From Botryllus schlosseri (lineage: Eukaryota), in assembly GCA_051294905.1 (NCBI GenBank), contig CM119373.1:29388001-29452000 (forward strand): DNA of 64,000 nt, read 5' to 3'. The notes beneath the pieces were generated by a model, which ran no database searches, was not told the origin of the DNA, and saw only the letters and a program-made list of their open reading frames with translations. A program made the translations under genes and the position numbers. Positions 25,007 to 47,946 of this stretch are shown here, one piece after another. Positions within the stretch are counted from its first letter, which is position 1. The number at the start of each line of letters is the position of its first letter.

Positions 25007-25933
25007 GTGTTGAGTTTGGTCGAATCGGGTGCACTACTAAACACACGAGATTGTGTACTATTTCTGAGAAATCACGGGTTGTTGGTGCGAAGGATGAAAT
25101 GCAAGAGATGTAGAAAAATAATGAAAGAGGAAAATACGTCGACAGGCGACGATGGGTTTAGGTGGCGATGCAACCCCTGCGACACTACGGCGACTATACG
25201 AAAACACTCGATATTCGCAGGAAGCAAGGTAGAACTTCCCAAATTATTAATATTATTCTACTTTTGGGCCCATGACGCGTTGCAAACCCAAATTGCACAT
25301 GAAGCTGAAATTAGTCAGCGTTCAACGGTCACCTGGTGCGGCCGATTGCGAAAGCTTTGTACGGCCGAATTTCACAGGAATAAGCGACATCTGGGAAATG
25401 AAGGCGGCTGTGTGGTCATTGATGAAACGCACTTAGCTAAGCGCCGGGCTGCCTCAGACAAAGGACCAGCCGTTAAAGCCATTTGGGGGTTCGGTGGCAT
25501 AGATAAAGCTACCGGAGAAATGTTCATTGAGATTACTTCCGACAGGACTGCTGAAGTATTTCGAAAACTCATAGTAGAAAATGTGGCAGAGGGGTCCACA
25601 ATTTTAACCGATGCCTACCCTTCCTACAGGGGCATAGAGAGCTGGGGGAAGGGTTATATACACGGTGTAGTGGACCACTCCCAGTGGTTTAAGGACCCTC
25701 GGACATCTTTTTGTACTAATGAAATCGAGGGGGCCTGGGGCCAGCTTAAATATCATTTACATAGGTCTCGTGGGTTAGCACGTCACCTTTTGGCCGATTA
25801 TGTAGGGGAGTTTTTGTGGAAACGTCAATATCAAAAGACTGACCGATTTTTGGCACTCCTGCGTACCATACACAATGACCCACGGTATAATTTTGACAAA
25901 TTTGATGGGTCTCCTGTATTACCACAATTGTGA
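25007..25933 (+). CDS. IS1595/ISXO2-like (Merlin-type) DDE transposase 1; no in-frame ATG at the homologous N-terminus
   Basis: Zn-ribbon CKRC...WRCNPC, VVIDETHL, ILTDAYPSY, H.(V/I)VDHS, TNEIEGAWGQLK, Y..EF.W; frame is open from 24950. Confidence 0.88.
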   Translation: MLSLVESGALLNTRDCVLFLRNHGLLVRRMKCKRCRKIMKEENTSTGDDGFRWRCNPCDTTATIRKHSIFAGSKVELPKLLILFYFWAHDALQTQIAHEAEISQRSTVTWCGRLRKLCTAEFHRNKRHLGNEGGCVVIDETHLAKRRAASDKGPAVKAIWGFGGIDKATGEMFIEITSDRTAEVFRKLIVENVAEGSTILTDAYPSYRGIESWGKGYIHGVVDHSQWFKDPRTSFCTNEIEGAWGQLKYHLHRSRGLARHLLADYVGEFLWKRQYQKTDRFLALLRTIHNDPRYNFDKFDGSPVLPQL

Positions 25934-26062
25934 ACCCCGCTATAAGATTCCAGGACGGAAATGACGACATCTGTTATTTTGTGTTTTTACAGACGGTAGT
26001 CTAGGGCTAGTGCGCACTTATATTTAATTTATGACGTGGGGAAAACCACCACTGCCCGTACC

Positions 26063-28579
26063 ATGGACCTCCTTCCTCATTTTCTGTCTATCCTTGTTGG
26101 TATCATTTGTACATCTGATTTGTTGCTGCATACGGCGGCGAAAGGCATGCACGGACTCGCAGATCCTGTAACAGGTAGAGCACGATCTTTCACTCAGGGG
26201 ATGCTGGGTGAACTACGAGGACCCCTGCCTGATGAATGGATCACTTTAAATGATACACAATGGGAGGACTATCACTTGATGAGCATCTTCAATAAAACGG
26301 CGGAGCGACATGTATATAGACGGCCTGAGTTGTTTTACAGTAAGTCATTTGGTTACGTAGTGGCTGAGCGATTTTCATTACAACAAATGGCGTTTCCACA
26401 TGGAAGATATTGGAAAAATGTACCAGAATTTGAACGCACCTGTCTCTGTCAGCGACGCCTGGGCCAAATCACGCCCAATATTTCCTATGATGTCCTTAAA
26501 CAAACGAACATGTTCATTCGTCCAATAGGGGATTATAGGATCAGTTGGTTCTGGAGTGGGGACCAATACATGTCGTTTCATGACCTTGGCAAGAATTACA
26601 CTATGTTTGCTCTGACCAAATTTAAACTGATTATGATGAGACTATTCGAAAATTATTCAGCTGTTGAAGCTTCATGCCGTCAAAAGCCAATGACAGACCG
26701 GGACAGAGCCAAAATGAATGAATTGAATAAGTATAATGCCAGTAGCAATAGTTTTACACAATGCTGGCATCTAGTACAAAAAAGAGCCTACCGGGGCGAC
26801 TATTGGCAACAATTGTACTCCTGGAGGGAAAAAGGGGTCATAATAGGAATCTGTACAAGGTGTGATTTTAGAGGAGTTATCTCTGCCCTGGAACCAAATA
26901 AGGCAGATATAATCATCCAAGAAATAGTAATGACTACAGTAAATAACTGGCAGTATGTGCGCAGTCCGTTGATACCATGCCGGGCCCAGGGGGGATGGAT
27001 TAATCAGGACTGGTTTGAGCACTTATGGCCCGGGGGTGCTGTAATAGCCCATTCGTGCAACTTCTGGCCAGAAATGAATACCACTCTATGGGGCGATCTA
27101 CCAACGACAAATTTCCCTCCAAGAGTTAAATGGATACAACCGTCTTTTTCAAATCTAGATTATGGTTATTATGCTAATCGTGGCAATCAGGGCATGAGGT
27201 GGAATAACCTTTTTGATGGTGTACCGACTAGGTTTAGGGCATCTACATCAACATGGGTGCCTTTTCCCAGGCCTATGTGGAAACACTTCCCCTCTCTTAC
27301 TGCATCGGATGAAGCATGTAAAAATAGAATATCACGAAACCAGGATTTGTGTCGCGACCCGGTGGGCGGAACCGTTTTGAAGGCAGCTTTTTGGGACCAT
27401 ATTCATTTTGATCCAGAGCAAAACCGACCACGCTTTCCAGGGGGTCCAATAGAAATTAAAGGTGAATTGGTACCAGAAAATACCGCAAAACGGGGTACGC
27501 GTAGAAGGCGTAAAAGATTCCTAACTGGACTTATATGCCTTGTATTTGGTGTAATATCCGCGATTGCCGTCGTTGCAACAGTTTCAGCCCAGTTACATGA
27601 AGAGACGGTAGATCTTAGCCGACAAATCAATAATAGAATGATACAGGCCACGCAGAGGTCCACTGCACTGGGGAAAAAGATTAACGAACTCTCTCTACTC
27701 CAAACGGCTCAGCAACAGAAACTGGATCAAACGATCGCCACTATGGAAATGAGGGCATCACTAACAAATAGACGACTTGTACTAATGGAAAAGTACATAG
27801 AAAGAAACCGACAAATGATAATACGACAAGCCACAGCATCTCTGACCTCTTTTCAAAACTATAAGGAAATGAGTGATGCTGAACTAGCCATCGACCGATT
27901 AGTTTTGGACGAATTGGCTAATTTGACTGGCAAGTTAATATTTGACTCCAGCAAGGTGTACCTCACGAAAATCCGACAAGGAACGTTACGGATAAAGGAA
28001 CATGCTCAGCAGTTAACCGCCTATAGGGACGATTACATCAATGAGACAAATGACATTGGTGTAGAACTACGTGCTAACCGAATAAGCCTAGATCAAGCCC
28101 AACAGAGCGTGGATTTAGGCTTACAAGTTTGGAGAGAAGATCTGAATAAGAGTGTGTACATGAATATTTCTGACTGGCGATATGAGAATATTACAGTGAA
28201 GCCTTTCGAATTTGTTGGAGGGGAAGAATTTATGAAGAACTTTGGCCAAACGGTAGAAGAAATGACACACGGTGCCGGAAGCTTGATAAAATCAATAGGA
28301 GATAGCACAGGAAACCTACTACAAGACGGACTTGGCGCGGTCGGTGGTATATTTAGTAAAGGATTGAGCGGCCTTTTTTCTGGGTTGGGGTCTGTGTTAA
28401 TGCCAGTGATATTGATATTGGGGGCTGGGATCATCTTGTTTTGTTGCTGTCGCTATGGCAGTCTCTGCTGTCCTAAGTTGAAGTCTAAGGTACAGCAGCG
28501 TAACACGAATACTCAGTTGACAATGTACATATCATCGGTACCGACCCCCGTTAGAACAGCCAAATCGACCAGAATGTAG
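26063..28579 (+). CDS. env: Envelope fusion glycoprotein (class I-like), 838 aa from ATG 26063
   Basis: Signal peptide; furin site RRRRKR (27500-27517) followed by hydrophobic FLTGLICLVFGVISAIAVVATVS; heptad-repeat region; Gly-rich membrane-proximal region; TM helix; Cys-rich tail; many NxS/T sites. Confidence 0.85.
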   Translation: MDLLPHFLSILVGIICTSDLLLHTAAKGMHGLADPVTGRARSFTQGMLGELRGPLPDEWITLNDTQWEDYHLMSIFNKTAERHVYRRPELFYSKSFGYVVAERFSLQQMAFPHGRYWKNVPEFERTCLCQRRLGQITPNISYDVLKQTNMFIRPIGDYRISWFWSGDQYMSFHDLGKNYTMFALTKFKLIMMRLFENYSAVEASCRQKPMTDRDRAKMNELNKYNASSNSFTQCWHLVQKRAYRGDYWQQLYSWREKGVIIGICTRCDFRGVISALEPNKADIIIQEIVMTTVNNWQYVRSPLIPCRAQGGWINQDWFEHLWPGGAVIAHSCNFWPEMNTTLWGDLPTTNFPPRVKWIQPSFSNLDYGYYANRGNQGMRWNNLFDGVPTRFRASTSTWVPFPRPMWKHFPSLTASDEACKNRISRNQDLCRDPVGGTVLKAAFWDHIHFDPEQNRPRFPGGPIEIKGELVPENTAKRGTRRRRKRFLTGLICLVFGVISAIAVVATVSAQLHEETVDLSRQINNRMIQATQRSTALGKKINELSLLQTAQQQKLDQTIATMEMRASLTNRRLVLMEKYIERNRQMIIRQATASLTSFQNYKEMSDAELAIDRLVLDELANLTGKLIFDSSKVYLTKIRQGTLRIKEHAQQLTAYRDDYINETNDIGVELRANRISLDQAQQSVDLGLQVWREDLNKSVYMNISDWRYENITVKPFEFVGGEEFMKNFGQTVEEMTHGAGSLIKSIGDSTGNLLQDGLGAVGGIFSKGLSGLFSGLGSVLMPVILILGAGIILFCCCRYGSLCCPKLKSKVQQRNTNTQLTMYISSVPTPVRTAKSTRM

Positions 28580-28666: not shown

Positions 28667-31600
28667 ATGAATCGTTACTTAAAAATATGGATTGTGCTGG
28701 CAGTAGCCTTAACACTACACCGAGGATATCTGCAAACTCATGGCCAATTATTGCCCCTATCTGATATGAGTGTGGTTCCCAGGATAGCATTTAATCTTAC
28801 AGGATGGACGACGTTCCGGTATCAAGGTCTCAGATACATCCGCCTTAATCAACTATTCAAATTAAACGAGAGTTGGCCAATAGGTGAAACGGAAAATAAT
28901 TTTCCAATATACAAAGAGACGCCCGAATTTGGTCCAACACGAGCTAGCCAAGATCAATTGTACAAGTTATTTGCACCCTCGGGGTCTGACAAGAGGTATT
29001 GGAATAATGTTAGACAATACGAAAGAGAATGCGGGTGCAATCGGAAACTATCAAGAATATCTCCCGATATTACGTTGGCAGCCTTTACCAGAACCACAAC
29101 ATATCGTCGAAAGAATAACTTCGGTTCAGTACATACATGGAAGTATGTGGTAGGAAGAGGAGCACATGGCACTATGGCTGTGCCAGGTCCGATCCTTCGG
29201 ATGATTTCTCCTAATGCTACTCCACAAGTTTCTATACACCAGCTATTGACGGTGTACAAGTTATCAGTGATGAATATCTTGGCACAATATGCAACAGTGA
29301 CAGCAAGGTGCCAGCAGCGTTTGGGAGAAATCGCGGGATGGAGAGTCAATAAAGGCGACTTTAACGTATGCGTGCACGGAGAAGACAACCAGATGCAATG
29401 CATAGGATGCTCATTTTATACAGACGATCTGGCAGTAAATATACTGTCCAGAGACTTTGTGGTCATGGAAATAGATAATAGCATCAGAGGATTAGGGACG
29501 AGAATGCAAGAAACTTATTCCTACAGTCAATGGCCAGCGGGAGTCAGATTACCCAGATTACATCACGACATCGTGTGGTTGAAGGCTCGAAATGAAACAG
29601 GCCCCAGGGAGAGGCCAGCAAACTTTGATGGTCATACTTGGTTTAGATTGAGGATTTACGCTCTTCGCGAACATCTAAATAATGATACTCAACGGATAAT
29701 GGGGAAGAAAAATTTTCCGACTATGTTGCAAGGCAGCATAGAATGTGAACGCAAGAAAAATAAGAAGGTTTGTCGCAATTCAATAGGAAGTTTGAAGACG
29801 GCCTTGGCCTTTAAGGAAGTGTTATATGATCCATATACAAATCAATCTGTGTATGCAGATCATAGCCATGGTCGATTACAAATTGCATCCCCAAGAACTG
29901 TAGGTCAGGAATCTCCACTTGAAGCGTGGCCTAAGAATCTACCCAATTGTAAACAACCCGGTAGATTAGGCAACCTTATCCTGACTGCATCATTCAAAAG
30001 CAATGGGCAAAACACAAGGAATATTGACTATTACCTAGCTCGCCTGGGAATGTTTTACGTAGAAGTAACGAAAAGGCGTTTACGCCAGTTATCTTTGCCC
30101 ATATATAAAATGCGAAAAACCCTGGGGAGATTGGACAGGTCCATAACTGGTGAAGAGATGGAGTCTCTAAGTCAGACGCTACGGTCAGCGTTGACACCTC
30201 AGAAACTGAGTAGGATAAATGAGGAGTTACTGAGCTATATGTCAACGCGCAAGCTCATAGAGGCGCAGCTTTATGATATGCGGATATTCCGACCTAGCGT
30301 TGCCTACAAAGCTATAATATGTGCGGGAATATTGGTGTATACACCTTATGCCTATAAGGAGAATATCCAACCGAAAACAAACTCCGCAAGGCCATCAAGC
30401 ATTGCAAAAGCATTAACAACAAGGCCTAGTAGTAAGGAAGGGACCACTCGAAGTGTGACTCCTAGCAGCGAGTCTAGTACAGTGTATAATTTCACTTCCT
30501 TCGAAATGGATCCAGAACCAACAGTGAAAATGGTGGAAACCATGATAACTGCTGGGGCAAGTATAAAAAGAACGGATCAGTACGATATTAATCGTTATAA
30601 CTATGATAATATAGAAGGTTATGAGGGATTTAGCTATGACGAAAATGACAACTATACCAGTTTACAAGAACCTGAAAATTACTACTATGACTATTATGAC
30701 GTAGATGGTGAATATGATAGTTCACTAAGAAGGAAGCCCATATCCGTTAGCGACACTACGACATCCACAAATATCATTGAAACTACAAATGCGTTATCCA
30801 CGAGTGGTACTCCAACCGCAATTACAGGGAGTCAATACACAATTAAGTCAACAATGGTTACCGCAACTTCTACGCCACGCCCGTCTGCATACACTCCGAA
30901 AAGTACTGCGGCTACATTAACAACTACTACAATCACGCCATATACTAGAAGGTTTACATCAACCATTATTACTTCTGGGACGACTTCATCGACACCACTT
31001 CCAGCCATGTCGATGACTGAGTATTCCTCACGCGAAGATAACACTAGCCCAAGACCGACTGCATCTATTATTACATTCTTAACTACAGTAAAAACTGTGA
31101 GTGAACAAGAAAGACGCAGGACGAGGCCCACAACTATCCTCACAACTGTGGAGCCGTCTACGGCTATATCAACAGAGATGGACACTCAGAAAAGCATTGG
31201 TATTGCTACGACAGGAGTCACCTTTTCTGAAAGAGGGTTAACAACTCGTGTACCAATGGAGAGAAGTGTAAACGCAAAGTTACAATGGAATACCATGACC
31301 GATCAAATACCCACAAAAAATGGTGAAATGATAGGCTCCTTATCCGTGCCAATAAAGAAAACACCCCAGATTACGCAGACACCTGAGTCTTATATTCAAT
31401 TGAGTTACCACACAAATCAACTCATGGACACAAAACCTCAAAGAGTGCATTTCAAAATGCTGTTTGATACAACCCAAGTAGCAACGACAGTCGAAACGCA
31501 CCAATGTTTCGTCACCGGCCATTCCCGCTCTAATACAGAACCAGATAATTTAAACAAAGAACAAGATCTACAGGTAAGAACTAAATCAACAACAATGCTT

Positions 31601-32068
31601 TCATCAGGGGACTATCAGAGCCAACCCACATCAGTAAGTAAAAATGATGTAATCAGAGGTTGGAAGAGTACTTCCAACAGTGCACTTTCTTCAATAACAC
31701 CCTCTATCGAAGAAGAAGGAAAAACTACACTCAGTATACCGCATACCTTACCTACGGCCAAATATGACAGACTGGACCGAATTACATTTGACTTTTATGG
31801 ACGACTGCACAAACTACAAGAAATGGAACAAGAATATGCAGCAGGTAAAATTATTGTTGATATTAACAATAGAAAAGATTTAGAAGAATCACTTAACAAT
31901 TATGTCTTGATTTTTGCGGTTAGCGTAACAACAATGGTAGGATGTATGTATTTATGTTATGCGAAATGCGGGAGAGTTGCAGCTAAAACTTATCTTAGAG
32001 AAGTTATTCGGCGGAATAACCGAAAGATGTATATTAACGTAGTAACATTGCATGAAAAACTGAGGTAG
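28667..32068 (+). CDS. Second type I membrane glycoprotein: Env-SU-like N-terminal domain plus Ser/Thr mucin-like stalk
   Basis: Signal peptide; RYWNNVRQYERECGCNRKL matches Env RYWKNVPEFERTCLCQRRL; long T/S-rich region; TM YVLIFAVSVTTMVGCMYLCYA. Confidence 0.82.
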   Translation: MNRYLKIWIVLAVALTLHRGYLQTHGQLLPLSDMSVVPRIAFNLTGWTTFRYQGLRYIRLNQLFKLNESWPIGETENNFPIYKETPEFGPTRASQDQLYKLFAPSGSDKRYWNNVRQYERECGCNRKLSRISPDITLAAFTRTTTYRRKNNFGSVHTWKYVVGRGAHGTMAVPGPILRMISPNATPQVSIHQLLTVYKLSVMNILAQYATVTARCQQRLGEIAGWRVNKGDFNVCVHGEDNQMQCIGCSFYTDDLAVNILSRDFVVMEIDNSIRGLGTRMQETYSYSQWPAGVRLPRLHHDIVWLKARNETGPRERPANFDGHTWFRLRIYALREHLNNDTQRIMGKKNFPTMLQGSIECERKKNKKVCRNSIGSLKTALAFKEVLYDPYTNQSVYADHSHGRLQIASPRTVGQESPLEAWPKNLPNCKQPGRLGNLILTASFKSNGQNTRNIDYYLARLGMFYVEVTKRRLRQLSLPIYKMRKTLGRLDRSITGEEMESLSQTLRSALTPQKLSRINEELLSYMSTRKLIEAQLYDMRIFRPSVAYKAIICAGILVYTPYAYKENIQPKTNSARPSSIAKALTTRPSSKEGTTRSVTPSSESSTVYNFTSFEMDPEPTVKMVETMITAGASIKRTDQYDINRYNYDNIEGYEGFSYDENDNYTSLQEPENYYYDYYDVDGEYDSSLRRKPISVSDTTTSTNIIETTNALSTSGTPTAITGSQYTIKSTMVTATSTPRPSAYTPKSTAATLTTTTITPYTRRFTSTIITSGTTSSTPLPAMSMTEYSSREDNTSPRPTASIITFLTTVKTVSEQERRRTRPTTILTTVEPSTAISTEMDTQKSIGIATTGVTFSERGLTTRVPMERSVNAKLQWNTMTDQIPTKNGEMIGSLSVPIKKTPQITQTPESYIQLSYHTNQLMDTKPQRVHFKMLFDTTQVATTVETHQCFVTGHSRSNTEPDNLNKEQDLQVRTKSTTMLSSGDYQSQPTSVSKNDVIRGWKSTSNSALSSITPSIEEEGKTTLSIPHTLPTAKYDRLDRITFDFYGRLHKLQEMEQEYAAGKIIVDINNRKDLEESLNNYVLIFAVSVTTMVGCMYLCYAKCGRVAAKTYLREVIRRNNRKMYINVVTLHEKLR

Positions 32069-35000
32069 ATATTGTAAAATAATTACTGGATTATTGTAAA
32101 GGTAGAAGTAAGGGTTATTATGTGTTTTGTTGTGTTCGGTCCGTTTTCACGGTTTAGAGTCCGTGTGAAATTAACCATTAACCTGAATTTAATTCCGTTG
32201 AAATAACATAATTTAAAAATTATGTTGTATTTGCCTATGGAAGCCTAAAAGTGTGCGGGATTTAAGAATGTACGAGGCAAATTCGCGGTATTAACGATGC
32301 TTATGCAACGAATACGATTGCGAAACACATAATTGCGAAATTTTCAGATGTTATTGCTAAGCCAAATCAGGATTGAGTAATACATCGGTTTGTAGTTCTG
32401 CTTCCCCGTCTAATGAAGCATCGGTTTGTAGTAATATGGGAGCAGATGGCGTGATCTTTGTAAAATGCAACTATAAATGACTGTGGGAATGTAAGTGTTG
32501 CAATAACATATTGACGCACAGGAAAGTATTAACTTTAGCAAAAACGACAGAATCCGACCTAAATTGGTGGTTTGATCACGCTATTGCAACACTCTTGCTC
32601 AATAAGGCCATAAAAGATGGTGAGAAAGGAAACGTTGCAGTGAGAGATGGACTCATAGGAAATAATTAACTGCAGAAAAATTGTGAAATTTGACTGCAAT
32701 TGGTGGTTTAATCACTCCGTAGTACGAATGATAGCGACAAAAATTTGCTTGATGAATGTTCGGATGTGCGTCAGTACCTACTATCCGAAATTAATTTATC
32801 GCTCGTAAAGATGGGGGGGCGGATGCAGGCATGTCAATGATCTTCCGCTCCTAACTGAATATAACTCGAAGCGCAGGGACAGAAAATTCAGTTCACTCTA
32901 CACAGAGCTGAAAGGCATGAAGAACCTAGGAAGCTGGCAGGGTTTGAAAAAAAACGTTACCTAAGACTGATGACGAGTTGTTCAAACCTTATGAACAATC
33001 GCATTAGGACGTTATGTAAACGTTAGATAGAGTCGTTGCTATATGAGACAATGACTCTAACAATAAGTGTCAACGTGGTAATTGACCAAAGATATTATCG
33101 GCCGTCACAAGATTGGGATCATTGTTTTGTAATAGTTGCCCTCCTCAGTGCTGCACTACTTGCAAAGAATGCGGTACTACTATGATATAAGTTCTCTATA
33201 TTGCACCAGTCTAATGTGACCTCATAGACCAAAGGAGATTGAAGATTATCTGAGCTAAACATAAAACGTCAGTGCTGTCCAATCGGGTGTTTCTTTGCAA
33301 ACTAAAAAGTACCATACTTATAAACAAGTTCAATTGTGGGACGGGAGACATAGTTAACACCATAATGGGGTTCTGTCTCACTAATTGAATCGCCAATATT
33401 GTTACGCTGAATATTACCAGGAGCATTGAGTCAAAAGGACGAAATGATATTATCTTCCCTGTTTCCGCATTAAATCAAGTAGCTACACTTGCATGGGGCT
33501 ATAAACTGAGAAATGGACTAGCAGTTCTTATCCAGAATACGGATATCACGGACTTCTAATTTTGTAACTAACAAATAGGTATATAGCCATGCTCTCCTGC
33601 TACATTTTCAAGAAACATTGGCTACCTTAGGCAAAGCAATTGGATATACGAGAGATAATGATACATTTTAAACAAATCGATGTCTAGGAAAATTTTGACA
33701 GTACAAAAAAGAAACTGATGCTCACTTTCCTATAAAGGGGAGAGAGTAAATCAACGAGGCATTCATAGCTATGATATGAAACATAATTATAGTCACCTGC
33801 TTCACTGGCATCTATAATATACAAAAATAAATCCTAAATACTCAGTACTAATTCAATATCGACGCTAAAAACTTGTCTGTAAAAATTAAAATGAGTCTTC
33901 GGAAATGCGAAGCGGTCGTATTAAATGACGAATATTTCACACGGAGCATATTGCAATAAAGAATACAATCTTGAAATCTATCTTTATCATATGACCAATA
34001 ATACAAAAGACACTATATTGAGTTTTAAGTAGTGTGTATACGCATTTGAGCAATAGCTTCGAACAATAAAATTTTAAAAGAACAAGTCAATATCACGAGG
34101 TTTGAAAGCCTATATGGAATATGGTATGACTCTTGCTTCACCTGGCTTATTGCCAGAAGTCGACTATTTTTCGTAAAGCAAGCTGCATTAATTGTTGCAT
34201 TCATTCTGCGTTGCTGAAGTACAAATGCTTGTGTTTTACGGTTAGAATAATTGATATTGTATCAGATAGCATAATATACTGATATAAGCAAAGAAATATA
34301 CCGCGAAATAAAATCGCGGCCCGCCCAACATGCATTCGCTCATAATGTTGCCTGTGATAAGAAGAGGTGCTGCTTATACCTGCTAAATACGACTACAAAT
34401 ATAATCATTTGCTGCACATAATGATAGTAGGTCTATAATTTTATGGTTTATGGTATAAGGTTGCTGTCAACGCTTTTTGCTACTATAGCTGTTATTTACA
34501 TATAAATTAAGAATGGCATCCCCATCGTATGACTTGGGCAACGGATTACAATGTCCTTTGAGAATTGCTTGCAATGGCATAATATGACGCATTTCGGCGT
34601 ATTGATTGACATGGCCATATTGGGGGATTCAAGTAGTTGAATGGCAAATTACTGAGTTGACAAACTGGTCTCATAAATTGATGGGACAGGTTCTATGTTC
34701 AATAAAATAAAAATTCAAAATAACTAAAATTTGATCGCAAAATCTATTCGCGGCCGAACAAGACGCCTTTAATAAAAATCGGCATCTATTTGGTGTCGGC
34801 CCCAAAGACAGCAGGACACTACGAACGAAGATCTAACCTAAATATAACAGTATTAGGTAGTATAAATAATTGCGGCAAAAGTTGTAATTTCAATCGGCGG
34901 AAACATGAGCAACAACCTATTGTGTATCAAGGCTGCCGCACGTAGTGTACTGCATATTGCACAAAACTGACAATAGCAACTAGGCTACAAGGAATGCCAA

Positions 35001-36797
35001 TAATTTCATATTGTATGTCGCTATACATAGGTCTAGGGTCTATCAAGTCACTGGTCTCAAGCGACTTGATTTGACCTGAATTGACTCGGTATATCAGATT
35101 TTTAACTCAGAGCAAAATTGGTGAGCTAATTTCAAGTTATCAAATAATCAATGTAAAACTGCAGTGACTCGAAATGACTCATGACTTGAATATTACAGTA
35201 TTGGAATCAAGACAACCAATCGGTATTTTAAATCAAAAAGTTTTTTTTATTTTCAAATATGGAAAGTGTTTCGGCCCTGGCCGGCTGCGTCGCTCCAATT
35301 GTTGCATTCACTACATTATGGTTTTTTTTTTTTACGACAAGCAGGGAATACCGCTTCAGGAAATGTAATCTATCGCATAAATGACTAGATTAAAACAATG
35401 TCTTCCAACTGTAGGTATTTTGTAGCATCTAACTAGACCAGTGAGTTAGTTTTACGACTAAAATAAATAACTTGCGATATTTCGGCTAAGCGGAATACAA
35501 TATTATATGTGAGACAACACTGTACAAATACCTACCTCGGTGATAGCGGACCGTAGGCTTAGGGTAATCCAGTCTGGTACATCCATATATATATATCCCG
35601 TTGAAAAGGTACGTTCCTTGCAACTTCTGGTATATCACAGGAATTATGGTTATCCCGGTTGAGAAACACTAACTTACAAACTCCAAAAATTAGCTATGCC
35701 TATACGCACAACTCGCCTCGTTGATCCAAAACCTAAAAATTGTGGCTAAGTAATTCGACAACGAGTGTCTGCCACAACGAAGACGAGTAGCATAGATAGT
35801 TTCCTGCACTGTCAAACTCATATTACGCTGCGAACCGGAAAATAGTTGAATAATAACAATTCTGCTCAAGACGCAAAGTGATTGATCCGCGTCGATGTTT
35901 TTAAGCTACTATGACTCTCGACTGTAAAATAGGTGCCGTTCTCAAAGCTCCCTTGGGTAAAGCATGGCTAATTTTAAGGAGGATATGGGCATGGTACCTA
36001 AATTTGTGTGACAAGAGCCACCCCAATTAAGGGGTCCTTCTAGAATGCCTGACAGGATGGAACGCTATTTGGGGTGATTCTAGTCATGCGCATTCGTATA
36101 TATATAAATAATAAAGGAAGTTCAAGTTATAGTGCGTCCCCATTAGCACAATGACCTGTATACTGAACATTGCCTTGTTTTTTTTTTAGTAAATAAGAAT
36201 CGTGCAAACGCTGGTTGTGTGCGCTCGGCGACTTGATATGGGAGTTTAAAAGATCGCAATGAAATGATGAGATTGATTTTGATTTAATATTGTGGTTTCT
36301 GTTTTAAAATAATCTATCCGCATACGCTCGACAATACTATTCAGTACTAGCAGAGGTGATTTCGACGCTGCACTCACCTAGCTGTGAGAGGGATACGCCT
36401 ATAATCTGGCTGCGAAATGCCGCGTACAACGAAGTAATTTTGTATAAATAAATAAGTGTATCAGAAGTAGACCACTTGCGTTTTGCTCTAGTTTGGTGAG
36501 ATTGGACGACTCGATAATTATGACATCAGATTTGCACTACACCACGCGCAAGTCCATCTTGGCATGTATGCTGTAAGAAGTATCAAGAATCTCACATCGT
36601 AGGTCGCGGTGCACTATTCTATTGTCATTAATTTACCATACTGATGAAGAAGTATCAAATTCTAATGCATGGGCGAAACTAAATTAAGAAATAGATAGTC
36701 TAAAAGAGATGTCAATTTCGATAAGAAAGCTATTGTAATCCGGGCCGACTGCGTTACTTTATTACTGCATTGCGTTTTACTAATGTAGGGTAAGAAG

Positions 36798-37328
36798 CAG
36801 TGTTGGGATGACTCGAGTCACTCGGGAAAAAAGTATTGACTCGTGTCTCGAGGCAAAATTTGCGAGTCAATATCAGGTCAATAAAATAAAAAGTGTCAAA
36901 TAAATTGCTGAAGCCTGCGCATACTCGAATTGTTTTGACAGATTATAAATAAATTAACCACAAATGAAACGATCGCGGCTTACGCTGTCGGGGTAGTTAT
37001 AAAGGATTATTCTAAATAACAACATCTTTCTGTCTCATTAGACAGCTCAATTCTTACGTTGTACAGTGCGTATCCTTCTGTATTTTGGTCAATAATGTCT
37101 GACTGTGGCATTTAGCTTTACAATTGTTCGCGTATTTGACTTGTGTGTGACCGATACAATAACTTTTTGCATGTATAGCTAACTACATATTTGTTGTTTA
37201 ATATAGATGCCAAAATTCAATTTGACTCGAATTGTGGTTTGACTCGTAATTTGACCTTGCTTGACTCGATTCTGGGTCTACCATGACTCGAGAAGACTAG
37301 TGACTCGAAGGAATTGATCCCAACACTA
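36798..37328. mobile_element. hAT-type MITE (GACTCG-rich) inside the ORF-free interval
   Basis: TIR CAGTGTTGGGAT / ATCCCAACACTA; TSD GTAAGAAG / GTACGAAG (7/8); motif content resembles 12085-12666. Confidence 0.85.
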
Positions 37329-40252: not shown

Positions 40253-40768
40253 ATGACAAGTGCTGATGCCATGGAGGCCTCTGTTCTGGATGAACAAATC
40301 TGGACCGGAAGGTGGATTGTTGTATTAAAAAATATAGATGAATTTCTCAAATCATGCCAAACATCGCCTGAAGCGGATGAAAATAAGGAAAATGAACAAG
40401 AAATTGACGAGGCCACCTTGGAAAGCTATTTTGAAAGAAACCCTTCGATTTGGGGAGATAGTACCGATTCGGAATTAGATCTAACCGACTCGGATGGAAG
40501 TTTGAGTATCTCGTCACATACTGATTCTGGACATGATGATATAGAGTCCTATTTTTACTCAGATAATGAGTCCGGGTCTTATTCTGATTCCGAGTCTAGT
40601 GATTTGACAGACTCGGACGAAAGTTTGAATACTCTACCCGATACTGACTCTGGGGTTAATAGTAGCGATTCCGATCTATCCTCAGATCATGAACAGTTAC
40701 GATCTCTTGACGAGGCAACTCTCAGGCGCCTTGATAGAATGTTTTGGCGCCCCTGGATGAACGAGTAA
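40253..40768 (+). CDS. Acidic Asp/Glu/Ser-rich protein with a near-terminal WRPW motif
   Basis: 171 aa, repeated DLTDSD/DTDSG units, ends RMFWRPWMNE. Confidence 0.65.
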   Translation: MTSADAMEASVLDEQIWTGRWIVVLKNIDEFLKSCQTSPEADENKENEQEIDEATLESYFERNPSIWGDSTDSELDLTDSDGSLSISSHTDSGHDDIESYFYSDNESGSYSDSESSDLTDSDESLNTLPDTDSGVNSSDSDLSSDHEQLRSLDEATLRRLDRMFWRPWMNE

Positions 40769-41567
40769 AATCGGAAAATTATGCGACCAAATGTACAAAT
40801 CCATAGGGACCATAATTTGTGGTGTGTGTATATTGACGATTTTGCATTATTACCAAAGATGTCGCGTTCTCTTATTATTTTGCAATGTTATTATGAAACA
40901 AGTTATACTGCGTGTATCTGGTTGTTGAAAGAGTTGAGCACCAAAATAACAACGTTAGTATATTCGACAGCTTTATGAAGTATAAGATAGATCGTTGGCT
41001 TGCATAAGATAGGAGATTAGTCATAGAGGCCTCAGACTCAAATGTGCACGCGGGACATTTCCTAGTTTAGGCAACACTGCGCGCCGTAGCACCAATAATC
41101 TGAGTATTTGATATGTGGGTTCTAGCTTGGTAGTACTTGATAGTTATTTACAGGCAGGCGCTCAACAAACAACGTTAAGTTGTAATTCACTATTACATTA
41201 TTCACGTTTAATTAAGATCATAACATTTTCGAAAAATTAGAATAAAAAAAAAAAAAAATTTTTTTTTTGGACCAAAGCATATCTTCTTTTAGTTAAAAGG
41301 TTATAAATTGTGGTGCCTGTGACACATTAGTTCTATCCTCAGGACTCTAATTGATTCTAACATCTGGTCCCGCTCAGCTGGTGTCGTTATTTTATGATCA
41401 TCTAATTAGTCTTAGAATAAGTAAGTTGATGTTGTAGCACCAAATTAATTTATAATTTTTAAGTCACGAATGATGGTAACAATATTAGACAATATCTTTG
41501 ACTAAAAGGAAATATTATTCTCTTTAGGTGTAAAAATAACAAGGACATAAATAAAATAAATAAAAGA

Positions 41568-42086
41568 ATGTCTGCCTCAATAACTAAAGAACAATTGTGG
41601 GAGTTATCTATTGAAAATATCGAACTATGGTACGAAGAACTTCGGGGGGTGAAAAAGACAGAGAGATTACAACGATGGAATGATTTTTTCGAGGACATTA
41701 AGAATGGAACTAGACATTATGCGGAGGCTTTCTTCGAAGGAATGGGAGCGAGTAATGAAAAGGTTAAAGAATGGCCGTGGCGAAATGACTATCGTAGAAA
41801 GCACTTAAAAAATCGAAGGGTAGCAAACATAAAACCATATTCACAAAGGAAATCGGCCTCAAACAAACAGAATAGAAATGAAGACATAGCGGCTAGCTCC
41901 TCAACATCGACAAGTAGTCCTCTTTTGACACCCATACTGACGTCGTCTTCAACAAGCCACGACTTGCCGCATACTGGCAATGTTATGACAGATGAGACGT
42001 ATGCATCTTTTGGCAGTATCATGTTTCGTCAACAACTGCCTATCGCTAGGTTTCAGCCTACAACATCACGTCATGCTGATGTTTAA
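41568..42086 (+). CDS. Hypothetical viral accessory protein (172 aa)
   Basis: ATG-started ORF on the element strand, preceded by a TCTTTAG acceptor-like site; no recognisable domain. Confidence 0.55.
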   Translation: MSASITKEQLWELSIENIELWYEELRGVKKTERLQRWNDFFEDIKNGTRHYAEAFFEGMGASNEKVKEWPWRNDYRRKHLKNRRVANIKPYSQRKSASNKQNRNEDIAASSSTSTSSPLLTPILTSSSTSHDLPHTGNVMTDETYASFGSIMFRQQLPIARFQPTTSRHADV

Positions 42087-42269
42087 TTCATTTCTCGCAT
42101 GTTATTTGACTAACATGATTGGTAGGGTTGTATTAATGAAGTTGAGCTAATGTATTTTATCTGCCTCGCATTGATGTACAATATGAACCAATATACTAAT
42201 GTTGCGTGAATAAAAAGGAAAACATTTTGTATTCTAGAAATATAAATAGTGAACTAATTAAAGAAGACA

Positions 42270-43130
42270 ATGTGTTACGGGTTATTATGTAATCCTGATA
42301 CGGACCATAAAGTTGTCCACGAATGGGCAATGCAGTTCACTCTGACGCATAGGCAGCAGATGGTAATGGAAGCCATAAAAACTGCGCCGGTTCGGGACCG
42401 ATTGATGAGCCTCTTGTTGGGTACTTGTGAAAGGGACAATCCAAGGGTACAATATTGGCAACAATGTATGTACACCAAAGAGGACTGGACAAAATTAAGA
42501 AAGCCTTTTCACCCGGTCGGGAACAGTGAATGCAAAAGCTGCTGGCTTACGACGAATGTTAAGCCATATTTCAAGAACACTTTGCAGGTTCTTGAACTTA
42601 TAAAAGTGTGCCATGTCTATTTATTAGAAGCCTGTAGTATGCACAAAGGACTAGATCAAAACACCGAAAAAGATAAAGGAAATATAGTGCTTTATGTATT
42701 ATATCCAGAAGCGATAATAACCGCCATAGCTCTCCTGTTGCAACAATATCGAGGGGCAAAAAACATGCGAACTTTTTGTTTTACGAGATGTCGAATGGAC
42801 GCAGAATTTGAGTTCCTATTTGGGGGGAACCCTGAACAATGGAAGTTTACATACGGGTCCACAACCACTTTTGGTTATGTGGGGGGCGTTTTTATTCTAC
42901 CGATTGACCAACTGTCGGAATCAGCTCTTGAAACCTCGTTAAAAAAAGAGGGAAACAAACAAATAGTCAAAAATACCAGTTCGGAAACTACATTGGTGTT
43001 TGACATTGAGCCTTCAACCAGTAGAGATGATAGGCTTACGAACAGACTAGAGGCTCCGACCCGAATGGTAGCTTTAGGGAGACCCAGTGCAGACGGAACC
43101 CATGGTGTTTCTAGTGTTAAAATGAGCTGA
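42270..43130 (+). CDS. Hypothetical viral accessory protein (286 aa)
   Basis: Long ATG-started ORF on the element strand with several Cys/His residues; no family recognised. Confidence 0.65.
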   Translation: MCYGLLCNPDTDHKVVHEWAMQFTLTHRQQMVMEAIKTAPVRDRLMSLLLGTCERDNPRVQYWQQCMYTKEDWTKLRKPFHPVGNSECKSCWLTTNVKPYFKNTLQVLELIKVCHVYLLEACSMHKGLDQNTEKDKGNIVLYVLYPEAIITAIALLLQQYRGAKNMRTFCFTRCRMDAEFEFLFGGNPEQWKFTYGSTTTFGYVGGVFILPIDQLSESALETSLKKEGNKQIVKNTSSETTLVFDIEPSTSRDDRLTNRLEAPTRMVALGRPSADGTHGVSSVKMS

Positions 43131-44605
43131 TTCTAAAATGAGCTACTAATAATTTGATCTAGAAATTGTCTTCAGAAATGCGGTAAAGACGTAATATGGA
43201 ATTGTAAGATAGGTTAATCTGGACTTTTAGGGCTAGCCTAAAAGATAAGCCATGATAACTGAATTATTTAGGACTGACTGGTAATGGTTTAGGACAAATT
43301 TACAAATTCGGCATCATTACCAAAAAGTCAAACTAAACGGAAAAAGTATAGAAGCCGGGTATAGCGAAGCCGGAGATTAGCAAAAGTGGAGACTATATCC
43401 CTGTATTTTACTATCTATATATATACTCAGATGATAATACAGTTTATATTTTTATTAAAAGATTCCGATACATTGATCAATCGCTGGGATAGTTCCCACT
43501 ATCACCTCCCCTAGAATAACAACCCGGGGACTATGAGAACTTGAGTACTTGAATGCAAGACCGACCTATCTTTATTGCAAAAACTTTTTTAAATTCGAGA
43601 AGAACTTGTTACTGTCAATTATGAAGAACTGTATGATGCTTGTTTCCTATAATATTGAATGTTATGTGCGTATTTTCGGCTGCAATTTTCGTGTTTAAAA
43701 TTGGTCTGTAACGGCCCCAGACTACCTACCCTATCACAAATCACCTCGTGTTCATACTTAAATGTTATGCTAATCGAATTATATTTTATAAAGGCTGACG
43801 TGAGCGTAATTTTTTCTGTTTTTGCCCGCAACTGTCGCTCTGCCAAAACCTCTTTGTATGAGCCCCACACCAAATTGACGCTATTTTGATTATTGCTGCT
43901 ATTACATTTTTCTGATTATGTAAATTCTTTATTGTACTATACATAAGATGCGTAAAGATTAGCTTAGCCCCTAGTCTTTTACCCAATACTCGATTATGTA
44001 AAATTTGTGTAAAGTAATATTTTGCAAATTGCTCACATTCCTGTCCTCATGGCACCCTTCCTAAAATAGTCTCTATGAGACGTGTTTGTGTAATACTTGT
44101 ATAAATGATCCTTGAATAAATTAGTTTCGCCATTCAGAGAAACTCGGGTCGAAACATTTCTTATGGAAGGGAAGGAAGGAATGATGAGTAATATTACCTT
44201 TTAAATTGATATGTTGTATTACTTTCCCCACTAAAAAAAATCTTCAAAAATATGAAATATCTAAATTTGTTTATAGATTATAAAAATTAATAAAAACGAC
44301 AGTCAAAACCAAAAGAGAAAAAGTCATATTCTAAGAAAATCTTCAAAGAAAAAAATTATATAAATTAAAACCAAAAGAAAAAATTTTCAAAACAATAAAA
44401 TCCCTTGTGGGGGGGAGAGATTTATTGCCCAATAAGTACTGGGTGATTAATAAATGAATAAATGTCTTTATGAGTATGGAGGATACTTTATATAAGTTCG
44501 GAATAAAAATTAAAGGCATTGTATGAATCTTGAAAATTACTATACCGAGAAAATGGAAAATTGTACATATTTTTAAGGTATTAATAAAAAATAAAAATAA
44601 AAGGA

Positions 44606-45175
44606 ATGTTGGAATTTGATTATATTGAAGGTCAAAACGACCTACCAAATTGGTTTCTTTTGTATGATGTATATGATGAATTGGATCTACTGAATCTGAA
44701 AGAATATGATAGCGAGGAGGAGAGATTCCAGTTAAAAGAAAGAGTGTGGGAATTGCTTACGGACCGAGAGGATTGGGTTAAACAAACAGACAATGGCCTA
44801 GAAGAGGCAGCCCTAGATGAGGAAATAACCTCAGAAATTTTTGATGTGTTCAATCATGTGGTAGAAGAGATATTTGAAATAAGAGCGAAAGAATACACCT
44901 CTTTTGGAAGAAGAGTCATGTTGTATGAATTGATTAGAGGACTTGTGATGAAACTTACAAACACTAATATAACAAAGAATGTGTACCAGGAGAGAGAATA
45001 TTGTAAAGATCCGCCACATATGGAACAATGGAATTGTCAAAATAATTTGGGAATAAAAGGTTATTCAAGTTCAATACATTGGCGAACAAAAAGGATAAGG
45101 CGTATAGAAATACATCCTTACCCCTATGAAGGGGAAAGTGTGAACATTGACTCTATAATACCGGAACAATCATGA
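44606..45175 (+). CDS. Hypothetical protein, orphan family B member 1
   Basis: RRVMLYELIRGLVM...WNCQNNLGIKGY matches the 48246 ORF. Confidence 0.7.
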   Translation: MLEFDYIEGQNDLPNWFLLYDVYDELDLLNLKEYDSEEERFQLKERVWELLTDREDWVKQTDNGLEEAALDEEITSEIFDVFNHVVEEIFEIRAKEYTSFGRRVMLYELIRGLVMKLTNTNITKNVYQEREYCKDPPHMEQWNCQNNLGIKGYSSSIHWRTKRIRRIEIHPYPYEGESVNIDSIIPEQS

Positions 45176-45270
45176 ATAATGACAACGAATGTAAATAAGA
45201 TTTTGACTTACAAAGGACACTTTTTCGAAGGTATAGAGGAACAGAGTGGGTTATCTAATTTAGGAGTAAA

Positions 45271-46311
45271 ATGAACCGAGTGGAACTACTAGTATTATGG
45301 CTGGGCATGTGTTATGCTATTTATCCGGAAACAATAGAACAAAAGAAATGTACAATTAATGAAAGACGAACCATGTTATACCCGGAATGCATGCAAGGAA
45401 GCAATTTGGTACTTTGGTGTGACCATTCGAGTTATACAAGGATTCCGGATCCTGACAAAATATACCTGGCAAAATCTTGTCGGAACACAGTAAAGATATT
45501 CATCAACGACAGCTGCCTACGGGAAATAACCAAAGGACAATTGGAAAAGTATAAAGAAGTAGAGGTGTTGCATTGTGGTTGGAATAAAATCCAAACAATA
45601 CCAGGAGGAGTCTTCTGCAAAAATGAAAAGCTCAAGGAGGTAAACTTGATGCGCAACTACATCACACGAATTGAAAAAGAAAGCTTTTCAGGCTTATACC
45701 AACTGGAAAGTCTGTACTTAAGCAGTAATTTGTTGGCAGAGGTGGAAGGATCGATATTTGCCAGTCTGGAGAATCTGCAAAAGCTATATCTGGACAATAA
45801 TGAGATAAAAAGATTGAGGAATGGAACATTTGTTCACTTGCGCCGTCTCAGGATACTGGATTTATCAAGAAATGCAATAAACGCTATAGAAAAAGGGGCG
45901 TTCCAAGGACTGAGGAAACTGGAAACGTTACACTTGGATGAAAATAGACTGGTTGAGTTTGATATGACAGTACTCGAATCTTTATGTAATTTAGAGAGAT
46001 TAACGTTGTACTATAATGAATTACAATATTTTTCCCTGTCCTCCAATATCTCGTTCAAATATCTACATACTATTGATCTTAGTTATAATCACGTTCAATT
46101 TCTTAGTGATTCTCTATTGAAAAAATTACCAGACTTGGAGGTGTTAAAATTAAATAGACATAATAATGGAACGCCTACCAAAAGACCCCATGTGCGTAAA
46201 CAATCGAGATTATATTATAATGAGATGAAAAATTTATCCCATTGTGTGACTATACTTTCGAAAGGTATATTTACCGTTATTGTATGGCTAGTCACTATTG
46301 AACTGATGTAA
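45271..46311 (+). CDS. Secreted or membrane-anchored leucine-rich repeat protein
   Basis: Signal peptide, Cys-containing N-cap, about 9 extracellular-type LxxLxLxxNxI/L repeats, hydrophobic C-terminus. Confidence 0.88.
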   Translation: MNRVELLVLWLGMCYAIYPETIEQKKCTINERRTMLYPECMQGSNLVLWCDHSSYTRIPDPDKIYLAKSCRNTVKIFINDSCLREITKGQLEKYKEVEVLHCGWNKIQTIPGGVFCKNEKLKEVNLMRNYITRIEKESFSGLYQLESLYLSSNLLAEVEGSIFASLENLQKLYLDNNEIKRLRNGTFVHLRRLRILDLSRNAINAIEKGAFQGLRKLETLHLDENRLVEFDMTVLESLCNLERLTLYYNELQYFSLSSNISFKYLHTIDLSYNHVQFLSDSLLKKLPDLEVLKLNRHNNGTPTKRPHVRKQSRLYYNEMKNLSHCVTILSKGIFTVIVWLVTIELM

Positions 46312-46375
46312 ATCTAAAGAAAATATAGAATCTTGAGGTATTGATTCAGTATCGTCCTGTTCAACTAATAATAAG

Positions 46376-46930
46376 ATGTTTAATATATTAGAATACGGTA
46401 AAAATATTACTAAAAGTATCAAAATGTGTTTGGGATTGCGTTGTGATGATCCGGAGATACAACATTTGACCTGGATACCCCAAAAGGAAACACTAATAGA
46501 CAACGGATTAAAGTCGCTGAAGTTTCTGTTGACAACATATTCACTGACGGATCACTTATGTGATATAATGTACGACGAATTAAATCCACGACTACTATAT
46601 TGGAAACAAAAGTATGGTGTCACAACATGCAACAATCATTGGCTGGGGAAACATCTGGTTGAAAATGAGTGGGAAGAAATTTATACAGGAAGCATTTACC
46701 CTGAAAAACCTATACAAATGGCTTTTGCAGAAATTTGCATAAACTGGGTAACAATTTTAAAAAGAGTAAATCCTGAAATAAGGGAATTTCTAAAAAAGGG
46801 AGATTCTGAAAGAGATCTCATAATGTGGATAATCTTTCCGGAAGTTCAAATTTATGCATTGGCAAAGACGCAGGAAATATCATTAAAGGAAGCCGATTGT
46901 AGATTTATGACTTTGAAAGTACCTGCATGA
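46376..46930 (+). CDS. Hypothetical viral accessory protein (184 aa)
   Basis: ATG-started ORF tightly packed between the LRR and DDE2 genes. Confidence 0.6.
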   Translation: MFNILEYGKNITKSIKMCLGLRCDDPEIQHLTWIPQKETLIDNGLKSLKFLLTTYSLTDHLCDIMYDELNPRLLYWKQKYGVTTCNNHWLGKHLVENEWEEIYTGSIYPEKPIQMAFAEICINWVTILKRVNPEIREFLKKGDSERDLIMWIIFPEVQIYALAKTQEISLKEADCRFMTLKVPA

Positions 46931-46998
46931 AACTTAACTTTCCGATGTTTATGTATACAGAAACTACTTTTGAAAAGACAATTAAGTTTTAAATAAAT

Positions 46999-47946
46999 AT
47001 GAAGACTAAAGAACCCAGAAAAAGAAGAAATCTATTCAATCTTGCTCGATGTGGTATAATATCAAGTGAACGAAAATGTATAAAGTTTTTGCGATCACGG
47101 AAACTTCTTGTTCAAAAGGAAACATGTTTTAAATGTGGACAACAAATGAATGAAGAAAAATGCAAAAGAACTATGGATGGATATAGATGGAGGTGTCTGG
47201 GTTCAAAGTGCCGGACTACCACGTCCATAAGGAAAAGATCGCTATTTGAAGGAAGCAAAATAAGACTCACCCAACTTGTAATGATGATTTATCTTTGGAC
47301 CATAGATGTATCTCAACGACAAATAGCTTTTGAAGCACACGTTAGCAAGAGAACAATGGTGAATTGGACCAAGAAACTTCGTAAGATATGCTCTGGGGAG
47401 ATGGAAAGAAGAGATACTCTAATAGGGGGAATATCACAAGGTAAATCACATGTAATTCAAATTGATGAGACGTTTGTGGCCAAAAGAAAATTTAATCGTG
47501 GAAGAATAATACGCCAACGCTGGGTTTTGGCTGGAATAGATATGAAAACGCGAGAAATGTTTGCAGAATTGGTACCTGAAGAAGGGAGAAGAACCTCTGT
47601 ATTATCAGAAATAATTATGAAACACGTAAAAGAGGGATCCACTATATGGACTGATTCATTTGCCAGTTACCGCAAGTTGGAAAGCCTGGGAATGAATTAT
47701 AAACATTCAATAGTTAATCATGATCGCGAATTTGTCACCCCAGAAGGCATAAATACACAATTGATCGAGGTGTCTTGGAATTTTTTCAAAGCTGCTATTA
47801 GAAGACTGAATGGGGTATCAAGATCACATATTCCCCATTACTTACAGGAGTGGCTCTGGAAGAGAAGAGTGGCCTTGGAAGAAAGATTTCAACGATTTCT
47901 GGATATAATTGTCCTTGATCCCAACTTTCGGACATTAGAACATTGA
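46999..47946 (+). CDS. IS1595/ISXO2-like (Merlin-type) DDE transposase 2
   Basis: CFKC...WRCLGSKC, IQIDETFV, KRKFNRGR, IWTDSFASY, HSIVNH, TQLIEVSWNFFK, YLQEWLW; no flanking TIRs. Confidence 0.9.
   Translation: MKTKEPRKRRNLFNLARCGIISSERKCIKFLRSRKLLVQKETCFKCGQQMNEEKCKRTMDGYRWRCLGSKCRTTTSIRKRSLFEGSKIRLTQLVMMIYLWTIDVSQRQIAFEAHVSKRTMVNWTKKLRKICSGEMERRDTLIGGISQGKSHVIQIDETFVAKRKFNRGRIIRQRWVLAGIDMKTREMFAELVPEEGRRTSVLSEIIMKHVKEGSTIWTDSFASYRKLESLGMNYKHSIVNHDREFVTPEGINTQLIEVSWNFFKAAIRRLNGVSRSHIPHYLQEWLWKRRVALEERFQRFLDIIVLDPNFRTLEH

Follow-up and report, generated by a model that had tools for sequence, protein, structure and literature searches.

Retrovirus-like elements are defined by an integrase and long terminal repeats (LTRs), and pararetroviruses by having neither and by the lack of purposeful integration. 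Metaviridae (Ty3/Gypsy) and Retroviridae carry an integrase and an LTR pair and leave a target-site duplication (TSD) of 4–6 bp; Caulimoviridae, the plant pararetroviruses, have a reverse transcriptase (RT), RNase H and a movement protein, without integrase or active integration. DIRS (tyrosine recombinase, with a circular intermediate) and Penelope (GIY-YIG) are RT elements that use enzymes other than the retroviral integrase. The element described here lies in a 64,000-nt stretch of the Botryllus schlosseri genome (GenBank assembly GCA_051294905.1, contig CM119373.1, positions 29,388,001–29,452,000, forward strand), hereafter the window. It occupies positions 24695–62352 (37,658 bp, the ends set by comparing sister copies) and joins gag, pol and env-like genes to two Merlin/IS1595-type DDE transposase genes, TnpA and TnpB. 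From these two genes, an earlier note on this DNA had proposed that an RT virus replaced its integrase with a Merlin-type enzyme, a proposal that the sequence data support through terminal inverted repeats (TIRs) and a TSD bounding the whole unit and through the linkage of TnpA to pol. We consider it likely that this is one of a set of giant, probably enveloped RT elements in which integrase and LTR ends have been replaced by a Merlin/IS1595 transposase and TIRs.

Each of these systems shares part of its organization with the element. Merlin transposons are defined by GG termini and an 8–9-bp TSD, and imperfect Merlin TIRs are on record (PMC8101967); the element resembles them in its DDE_Tnp_IS1595 domain, its GG TIRs, the imperfection of these repeats and its 8–9-bp TSD. 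Merlin/IS1595 elements are compact, with a single transposase and no RT, whereas the families of the present element span 14 to ~60 kb and carry gag, protease–RT–RNase H, env-like genes and a tRNA primer site, together with one or two transposases, the constant one lacking an ATG and apparently spliced, and no miniature inverted-repeat transposable elements (MITEs). Teratorn is a piggyBac transposon fused to an alloherpesvirus, for which PMC10175614 proposes, without showing, excision and circle formation. As in the present element, TIRs bound a genome of viral type that is inserted by a cut-and-paste transposase acquired by capture, but Teratorn belongs to the DNA viruses and uses a piggyBac enzyme and TTAA sites, where here an RT element uses a Merlin enzyme that appears to replace a lost integrase.

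With Metaviridae and Retroviridae the element shares gag-pol, a −1 frameshift heptamer, the protease–RT–RNase H order, an 18-nt tRNA primer-binding site (PBS) ~250 nt past the predicted RNA start, an env-like gene and, in its families D and E, the order gag-pol-transposase-env; it differs in having neither integrase nor LTR pair, in its 8-bp TSD, in a Tpt1/KptA domain that ends pol and in an RT on its own long branch. Like Caulimoviridae, it has RT–RNase H without integrase, a single internal promoter/primer region, a predicted circular DNA and a predicted over-length RNA. It departs from them in its animal host, site-precise integration with a TSD, env-like genes, a tRNA-Ile or tRNA-Thr primer and a size 4–8 times larger, and Pfam found no movement protein in it. 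DIRS and Penelope likewise integrate with an enzyme other than retroviral integrase, but of another class, and they lack a protease, env and the Merlin-type TIR/TSD signature. A literature search of titles and abstract openings, outside subscription journals, Repbase and the supplementary Repbase Merlin tables of PMC8101967, found no description of such an element. The element stands outside Metaviridae/Retroviridae for its lack of integrase and LTRs, outside Caulimoviridae for its active integration and animal host, and outside ordinary Merlins for its RT and size. Uniting tRNA-primed reverse transcription with a DNA-transposon enzyme and TIR ends in one unit would cross the divide between class I and class II elements; the integrase would be shown to be replaceable, and this would be a new way for an RT element to enter chromosomes. 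If the RT cycle is true, the reverse-transcribed genome is several times the retroviral size, and its organization suggests the use of spliced-leader trans-splicing in viral replication.

Ends, transposases and linkage to pol

The boundaries of the unit and its transposase genes are as follows.

24687–24694, unstranded: left copy of the 8-bp TSD (CAATGTTT)
24695–24717, + strand: left TIR, beginning with GG (47 genome matches, 0 for the reversed control)
24962–24983, + strand: splice acceptor predicted from sequence, pyrimidine tract and CAG
24984–25933, + strand: TnpA, Merlin/IS1595 DDE transposase
46999–47946, + strand: TnpB, the second DDE transposase of Merlin type, starting with its own ATG
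62330–62352, − strand: right TIR, ending with CC (49 genome matches, 0 for the control)
62353–62360, unstranded: right copy of the 8-bp TSD

The ends form imperfect GG...CC inverted repeats, identical at 16 of 23 positions and flanked on both sides by the same 8 bases; with the Merlin/IS1595 TIR taken as at least 24 bp beginning with GG, we counted the element as Merlin-like. Genome-wide, and in all families tested, an 8–9-bp TSD is present in 47 of 53 end pairings. Family A, to which the window copy belongs, contributes 33 of 37 left–right pairings (32 exact 8-bp TSDs and one of 9 bp), three left and two right ends being without a partner in the set. A TSD accompanies all seven family-B pairings, two of which share flanks and probably reflect a duplication, and is found in 1/2 pairings of family C, 4/5 of D, 1/1 of E and 1/1 of F; the left ends of D, E and F were located by searching for the duplication itself, those of D being mutually homologous and that of F a single candidate. 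The TSDs are AT-rich and roughly palindromic. An empty-site joint was also recovered: DNA contigs aligned on an 8,037-bp deleted copy skip 8,045 nt (8037 + 8) and retain one TSD copy, although these contigs probably derive from other copies of the repeat that hosts the deleted copy. The 8–9-bp duplication expected from a Merlin enzyme thus flanks the whole RT element, and the empty-site joint agrees. Near-identical copies on different chromosomes have different TSDs, and the element was apparently active recently. The 47 left and 49 right family-A ends come no closer to each other than 4.7 kb, so there is no MITE family. All long open reading frames (ORFs) of the element lie on one strand, and its AT and GC skews are 0.10 and 0.09, against 0.004 and 0.006 in the left flank. 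These sequence signatures show that the whole unit was inserted in Merlin style, very probably by a Merlin enzyme.

The two transposase genes correspond to open frames on the + strand at 25007–25933 (TnpA, 308 aa) and 46999–47946 (TnpB, 315 aa). Both match Pfam DDE_Tnp_IS1595 above the cut-off (E 3.4e-10 and 6.5e-18, respectively) and are 38% identical to each other over 302 aa, which bears out their description in the earlier note as divergent Merlin/IS1595-type paralogues. The Zn-ribbon and D, D, E motifs also claimed there stand at the level of residues, the four CxxC..CxxC cysteines and D139, D202 and E241 being invariant in an alignment of 13 sequences, but Pfam Zn_ribbon_IS1595 matched neither ORF. 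The D/D/E motifs are present in 62 of 62 transposase copies, all chosen beforehand for an open frame of ≥260 codons, and the cysteines are found in host stand-alone Merlin-like ORFs too. The genes are indeed tightly packed on the element strand, with 129 nt between the end of TnpA and the env1 ATG (26063) and 68 nt between the ORF ending at 46930 and TnpB. A scan around each ORF found no TIR/TSD pair of its own, as noted before, and the close TIR-like matches within the element are its two ends only. Since TnpA lies inside the left TIR, at 312 nt, the TIRs and TSD are those of the 37.7-kb unit; they bound that unit only, and neither ORF is an independent Merlin insertion with ends of its own. 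The TnpA frame is open as first described, but position 25007 does not hold as the gene start: the codon there is GTG, not ATG, and the gene appears to begin at the predicted splice acceptor at 24982–24983. TnpB, the transposase genes of families H and I and the stand-alone genes begin with their own ATG. Both genes are under purifying selection, with nonsynonymous-to-synonymous ratios (dN/dS, here and below against the window copy and from selected copies, saturated pairs yielding no value) of 0.08–0.15 for TnpA and 0.17–0.25 for TnpB.

At least 42 pol loci, at 78–100% identity, are present in the genome (42 scored of 1677 candidates). At 40 of them a same-strand TnpA is found no more than 80 kb away, against ~0.008 by chance, and the two loci without it are a deleted copy and a contig edge; sister elements therefore do not lack the gene, and its linkage to pol extends across families down to ~55% pol identity. 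TnpB is near 26 of the 42 pol loci, all 29 TnpB loci have TnpA, and family B shows clean TSDs without TnpB. Because TnpA is near nearly all pol loci and TnpB is not, and because family B does without TnpB, the sequence evidence makes TnpB a dispensable paralogue from the same virus-associated clade and TnpA the integrase candidate, likely the integrase substitute. The idea that both genes serve as a substitute integrase is thus kept for the constant TnpA and dropped for TnpB. One family-B copy is nested in a short family-A copy (C5:18373634-18412484).

A transposase tree of 37 rows, rooted at the midpoint only, unites the two Merlin-like ORFs that stand alone in the host with 17 database proteins in one clade (99/100). 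All element transposases, both ORFs of the window included, fall outside it, and among them TnpA and TnpB each form a well supported group. The element RT belongs to a long-branched clade (100/99) with database proteins at 35–69% identity. No integrase was found in the scanned members of this clade, and the scanned pol relatives end in Tpt1, in Tpt1 plus an Exo_endo_phos fragment, in dUTPase or in nothing; the sister protein to the clade (P0165) carries an integrase. The RT is 20–34% identical to the nearest integrase-bearing pols, which among the database matches are Ty3/Gypsy-like. The best solved-structure match of pol is 8r0s ‘Enzymatic polyprotein’, which we take to be cauliflower mosaic virus RT. 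No relative was found in the viral_contigs collection; marine metagenomes yielded gag-pol relatives on two contigs (2/3 loci) at 48–49% identity, with a similar gag/pol overlap and a donor-like site, on contigs that at <5 kb are too short to show a transposase. A further pol relative, P0004, is a 31-member cluster on contigs as long as 1.5 Mb, which implies many copies in another genome.

These data bear on the view that an episomal pararetrovirus-like virus was occasionally captured by a Merlin transposase, or that the two ORFs entered an RT element as independent Merlin insertions. A pol without integrase whose best structure match is 8r0s fits the former, and the presence of stand-alone Merlin-like ORFs in the host fits the latter. 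Precise ends with TSDs in every family tested, however, and a TnpA that is under selection and stays with pol across families, are not what occasional capture would leave; independent insertion is largely refuted, as neither ORF has its own TIRs and both fall outside the stand-alone clade. We regard this view, in either form, as highly improbable.

Reverse transcription and a circular intermediate

Features that bear on replication of the element are as follows.

24906–24919, + strand: purine tract, not obviously conserved beyond family A; possible plus-strand primer
55236–55259, + strand: spliced-leader exon of the host, copied exactly; predicted 5' end of the genomic RNA (start of R)
55485–55502, + strand: PBS, 18/18 to the 3' end of tRNA-Ile(AAT) including CCA
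55532–55801, + strand: small hydrophobic ORF preceding gag
55810–58659, + strand: gag-like ORF of 949 aa with a single CCHC knuckle (zf-CCHC E 5e-4, slightly short of the cut-off)
58069–58078, + strand: splice donor of phase 1 (AAG|GTGAG) predicted from sequence in gag, upstream of the knuckle
58638–58644, + strand: A_AAA_AAC heptamer where gag and pol overlap, candidate site of a −1 frameshift
58614–62072, + strand: pol, with aspartic protease (DTG), RT (YIDD), RNase H and Tpt1/KptA
62135–62241, + strand: subterminal block common to the right end of permuted family D, then a purine tract

The protease is assigned from the DTG motif and a Pfam RVP match of E 0.12 only. No rve or H2C2 match to an integrase was found in pol, and the right TIR lies 280 nt past its end; where an integrase would be, pol has a Tpt1/KptA RNA 2'-phosphotransferase domain (61440–62072; dN/dS ~0.2–0.6). 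Nor does the element contain a long direct repeat that would represent paired LTRs. One direct repeat, 20064/63954, was considered as an LTR pair and set aside, as it lies outside the TSD-bounded unit.

The PBS is complementary at all 18 positions to host tRNA-Ile(AAT) plus CCA. In all seven family-A copies compared, its base 18 is either C or A, in agreement with the two host isodecoders. Recopying of the site from the primer would produce such agreement, as is established for the retroviral primer site and its tRNA. The same position matches tRNA-Thr(AGT) at 18/18 in families E and F and, over 19 nt, a third tRNA-like locus in family D; in families H and I the match shortens to only 15 nt and ~10 nt. 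The exact leader copy lies ~250 nt upstream of the PBS, both before gag, and is conserved even in families with flanks too diverged to align. It is the ‘Chordata 1’ spliced leader of PMC3795323 (Table 1), and it is a real mRNA 5' end in B. schlosseri: the template-switch oligo adjoins it in 262 and 653 reads, which are mostly host mRNAs and confirm the identity of the leader, not the start site of the element. The leader is one of stolidobranch ascidians and thus indicates a tunicate host. By sequence, the order leader, 250 nt, PBS, gag is an R-U5-PBS layout. Ten short copies on C1–C5 have no scored TnpA or pol match, and of these eight keep the exact leader and a ninth a leader with two mismatches plus the PBS; the two short copies that were mapped have lost RT–RNase H and retain gag sequence. 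RT, RNase H, gag and env1 are, like the transposases, under purifying selection (dN/dS 0.02–0.085, 0.04–0.10, 0.11–0.22 and 0.11–0.16, respectively). The copies are also mosaic. For 18 copies, the TnpA tree and the TnpB tree stand at a Robinson–Foulds distance of 26 out of 30 possible and reject each other in the approximately unbiased test (p 5e-4 and 5e-10, 2000 replicates), and pairs of copies shift from 1% to 10% divergence within pol; gene conversion could produce such mosaicism instead. Taken as sequence evidence, these features make it quite probable that the copies pass through reverse transcription.

The same features weigh on the alternative of a giant cut-and-paste Merlin DNA transposon that moves as DNA, with a retroelement module as cargo whose RT has its own role or copies sub-genomic RNA only. 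Ends and TSD that are plain Merlin (PMC8101967), no LTRs, no circle junction seen, no extra linkage of the ends, and non-autonomous copies with broken RT that still show fresh TSDs are all in keeping with it. Yet an RT under such strong constraint is unexpected for the cargo of a DNA transposon, and tRNA-matched primer sites that switch isotype between families, kilobase-scale mosaicism, and short copies that keep leader and PBS where no MITEs exist speak against it as well, so we judge it unlikely.

An internal primer site without LTRs implies that copying of the whole unit needs a template with joined ends, and two further observations concern such a template. In families A, B, C, F, G, H and I the transposase and env come first, whereas families D and E have the order accessory-gag-pol-TnpA-env, with TnpA ~130–160 nt past pol, in the position of an integrase; this order is a circular permutation of the other, and neither the pol nor the transposase tree places D and E as sisters. 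The second observation is a predicted splice. A YAG acceptor lies exactly 17 nt before conserved Y/H-N-V/I-L codons in 8/8 TnpA-clade copies shown, most TnpA-clade genes having no in-frame ATG ahead of the start of homology. The gag donor AAG|GTGAG, in the phase that matches the TnpA acceptor, is present in 14/14 copies of families A, D, E and F, although synonymous sites are saturated between families; family I, with a transposase gene that begins at its own ATG, has a weaker version of it. In D and E, donor and acceptor are predicted to give a plain Gag-TnpA splice. In the window copy, by contrast, the donor lies 33 kb downstream of the acceptor, so the splice could occur only on RNA that crosses joined ends. 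Permuted gene order and splice geometry together point, with somewhat better than even confidence, to a circular intermediate.

An RT element with Merlin integration could also do without a circle of the unit, using tandem or read-through templates, or an RT jump between RNA ends, and inserting linear or transiently joined DNA. PBS, selection and mosaics fit this equally; no circle junction is listed, linkage across the junction is low, and a locus on C5 has one left end and two right ends sharing one TSD. It is harder to reconcile with a PBS ~250 nt past the leader (R-U5 spacing), from which the first product cannot reach the TIRs without a joined template, and with the finding that nearly all copies are solitary, as the 47 left and 49 right ends indicate. 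We rate it as quite unlikely, a step below the cargo alternative.

Several results weigh against replication through reverse transcription and a circle followed by transposase-driven insertion. Four of the 37 family-A pairings lack an exact TSD, one of them by a single-base difference. No conserved polypurine tract was found before the leader (candidates at 24906 and 62218), and RNA coverage over gag-pol is near zero. The Gag-TnpA splice is a prediction only, and the scan of gag and pol that gave its donor also gave two weaker phase-1 candidates. No right-to-left end joint was seen in one DNA contig set, where rare forms are dropped, or in two single-cell RNA runs (3–4% of each run read); an RNA run with 0 reads makes no junction test. 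No RNA holder came up in an index search. Linkage from end to end across 15–21 copies is no higher than between distant segments (rho 0.22–0.37), in a comparison of little power, as linkage already decays within ~1 kb. The pol and TnpA trees share their deep nodes but disagree on the relations of families A, D and F. The env1 models, from a single sequence and from an 11-row alignment, are of low confidence (pLDDT 37–40), and fold searches with them gave generic coiled coils only.

For the RT element with a substitute integrase, which we continue to favour, the following cycle may be envisaged. The transposase would release the insert as a circle with joined ends, around which an over-length RNA starting at the spliced leader would run. 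Gag would package this RNA; tRNA-primed RT would copy it, jump at the leader/R repeat and remake the circle as in pararetroviruses. TnpA, probably brought in as a spliced Gag-TnpA fusion, would open the circle at the joined TIRs and insert it with an 8-bp duplication. Env1 and env2 would allow spread from cell to cell, and TnpB would be a spare paralogue. Whether the word virus applies in the sense of infectious particles is, in our estimate, evenly balanced. More tentatively still, and with slightly less than even confidence, the elements may form a new family-level lineage of enveloped RT animal viruses with genomes of up to 40–60 kb, a circle, a trans-spliced leader as R repeat, a Gag-fused Merlin/IS1595 transposase, integration at joined TIRs and relatives in other marine hosts.

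Some further observations concern the leader and the RNA data. The spliced-leader exon occurs in 393 genome places and also heads other repeats, among them a further gag-like family (L204), an unidentified repeat (L224-L227) and a repeat with a long ORF (L210, L228, L229) that is presumably non-LTR-like; related elements may be well above the number counted here. The leader copy was ruled out as a functional spliced-leader RNA gene, as the next bases are not always GT, and no true spliced-leader gene was found in six genome stretches. Acceptors precede 10/20 ORFs against a background of 0.30, too weak a signal for a claim of operon-style trans-splicing. Single-cell element-sense RNA reads pile up just upstream of the leader (L159:8090-8260, window ~55060–55235), to a depth of ~400 in one run, and near the right end (L159:950-1440), with little in gag-pol; if the libraries are 3'-tagged, poly(A) sites at these two places could account for the pile-ups.

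Gene content and surroundings

The element holds ~21 ORFs, including gag, pol and the env-like genes. Apart from those given above, its features are as follows.

26063–28579, + strand: env1, putatively class I fusion-like
28667–32068, + strand: env2, membrane glycoprotein with a Thr/Ser-rich stalk, its N-terminal part homologous to env1
32069–40252, unstranded: 8-kb stretch without long ORFs, parts of it common to short copies
40253–46930, + strand: first block of accessory ORFs (acidic ORF, unknowns, leucine-rich repeat protein)
45271–46311, + strand: leucine-rich repeat (LRR) protein
46376–46930, + strand: ORF that precedes TnpB in families D and E too
48246–54214, + strand: second block of accessory ORFs, including IAP and E2
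49146–50840, + strand: IAP (three BIR and a RING)
52537–52992, + strand: E2 ubiquitin-conjugating enzyme

Env1 is laid out with a signal peptide, an RRRRKR basic site, a hydrophobic peptide, long heptad helices and a C-terminal transmembrane segment. Its features match those of coronavirus S2, paramyxovirus F and hemagglutinin at 0.89–0.90, with low recognition, and its best PDB profile match, to spike heptad repeat 1, is weak (E 0.089). From this layout, env1 would be a class I fusion protein-like glycoprotein. Rfam gave 0 matches, and ARAGORN 0 on the window.

The captured E2 gene was considered as a test of intron loss and proved uninformative, as the host has many intronless E2 paralogues. 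Some are dispersed (C2:36471331, C14:22578859, C1:20442796 and others, with equal scores and ~55–57% identity to the element E2), and another mobile element may carry such dispersed sets. At C1:34.1-34.5 Mb, intronless E2 genes of up to 83% identity form a tandem cluster, a possible donor.

Elsewhere in the window, a PIF/Harbinger-type element at 2772–6712 carries a MADF ORF, a DDE_Tnp_4 ORF and 23-nt inverted ends. Two single-exon CD20/MS4A-like host genes lie at 10661–11464 and 23145–24056, and the element is inserted ~640 nt behind the second. Nested inverted-repeat pairs at 8208–19391 and a short TIR element at 62880–63763, which shares its terminal motif with 14211–14235, are probably MITEs.

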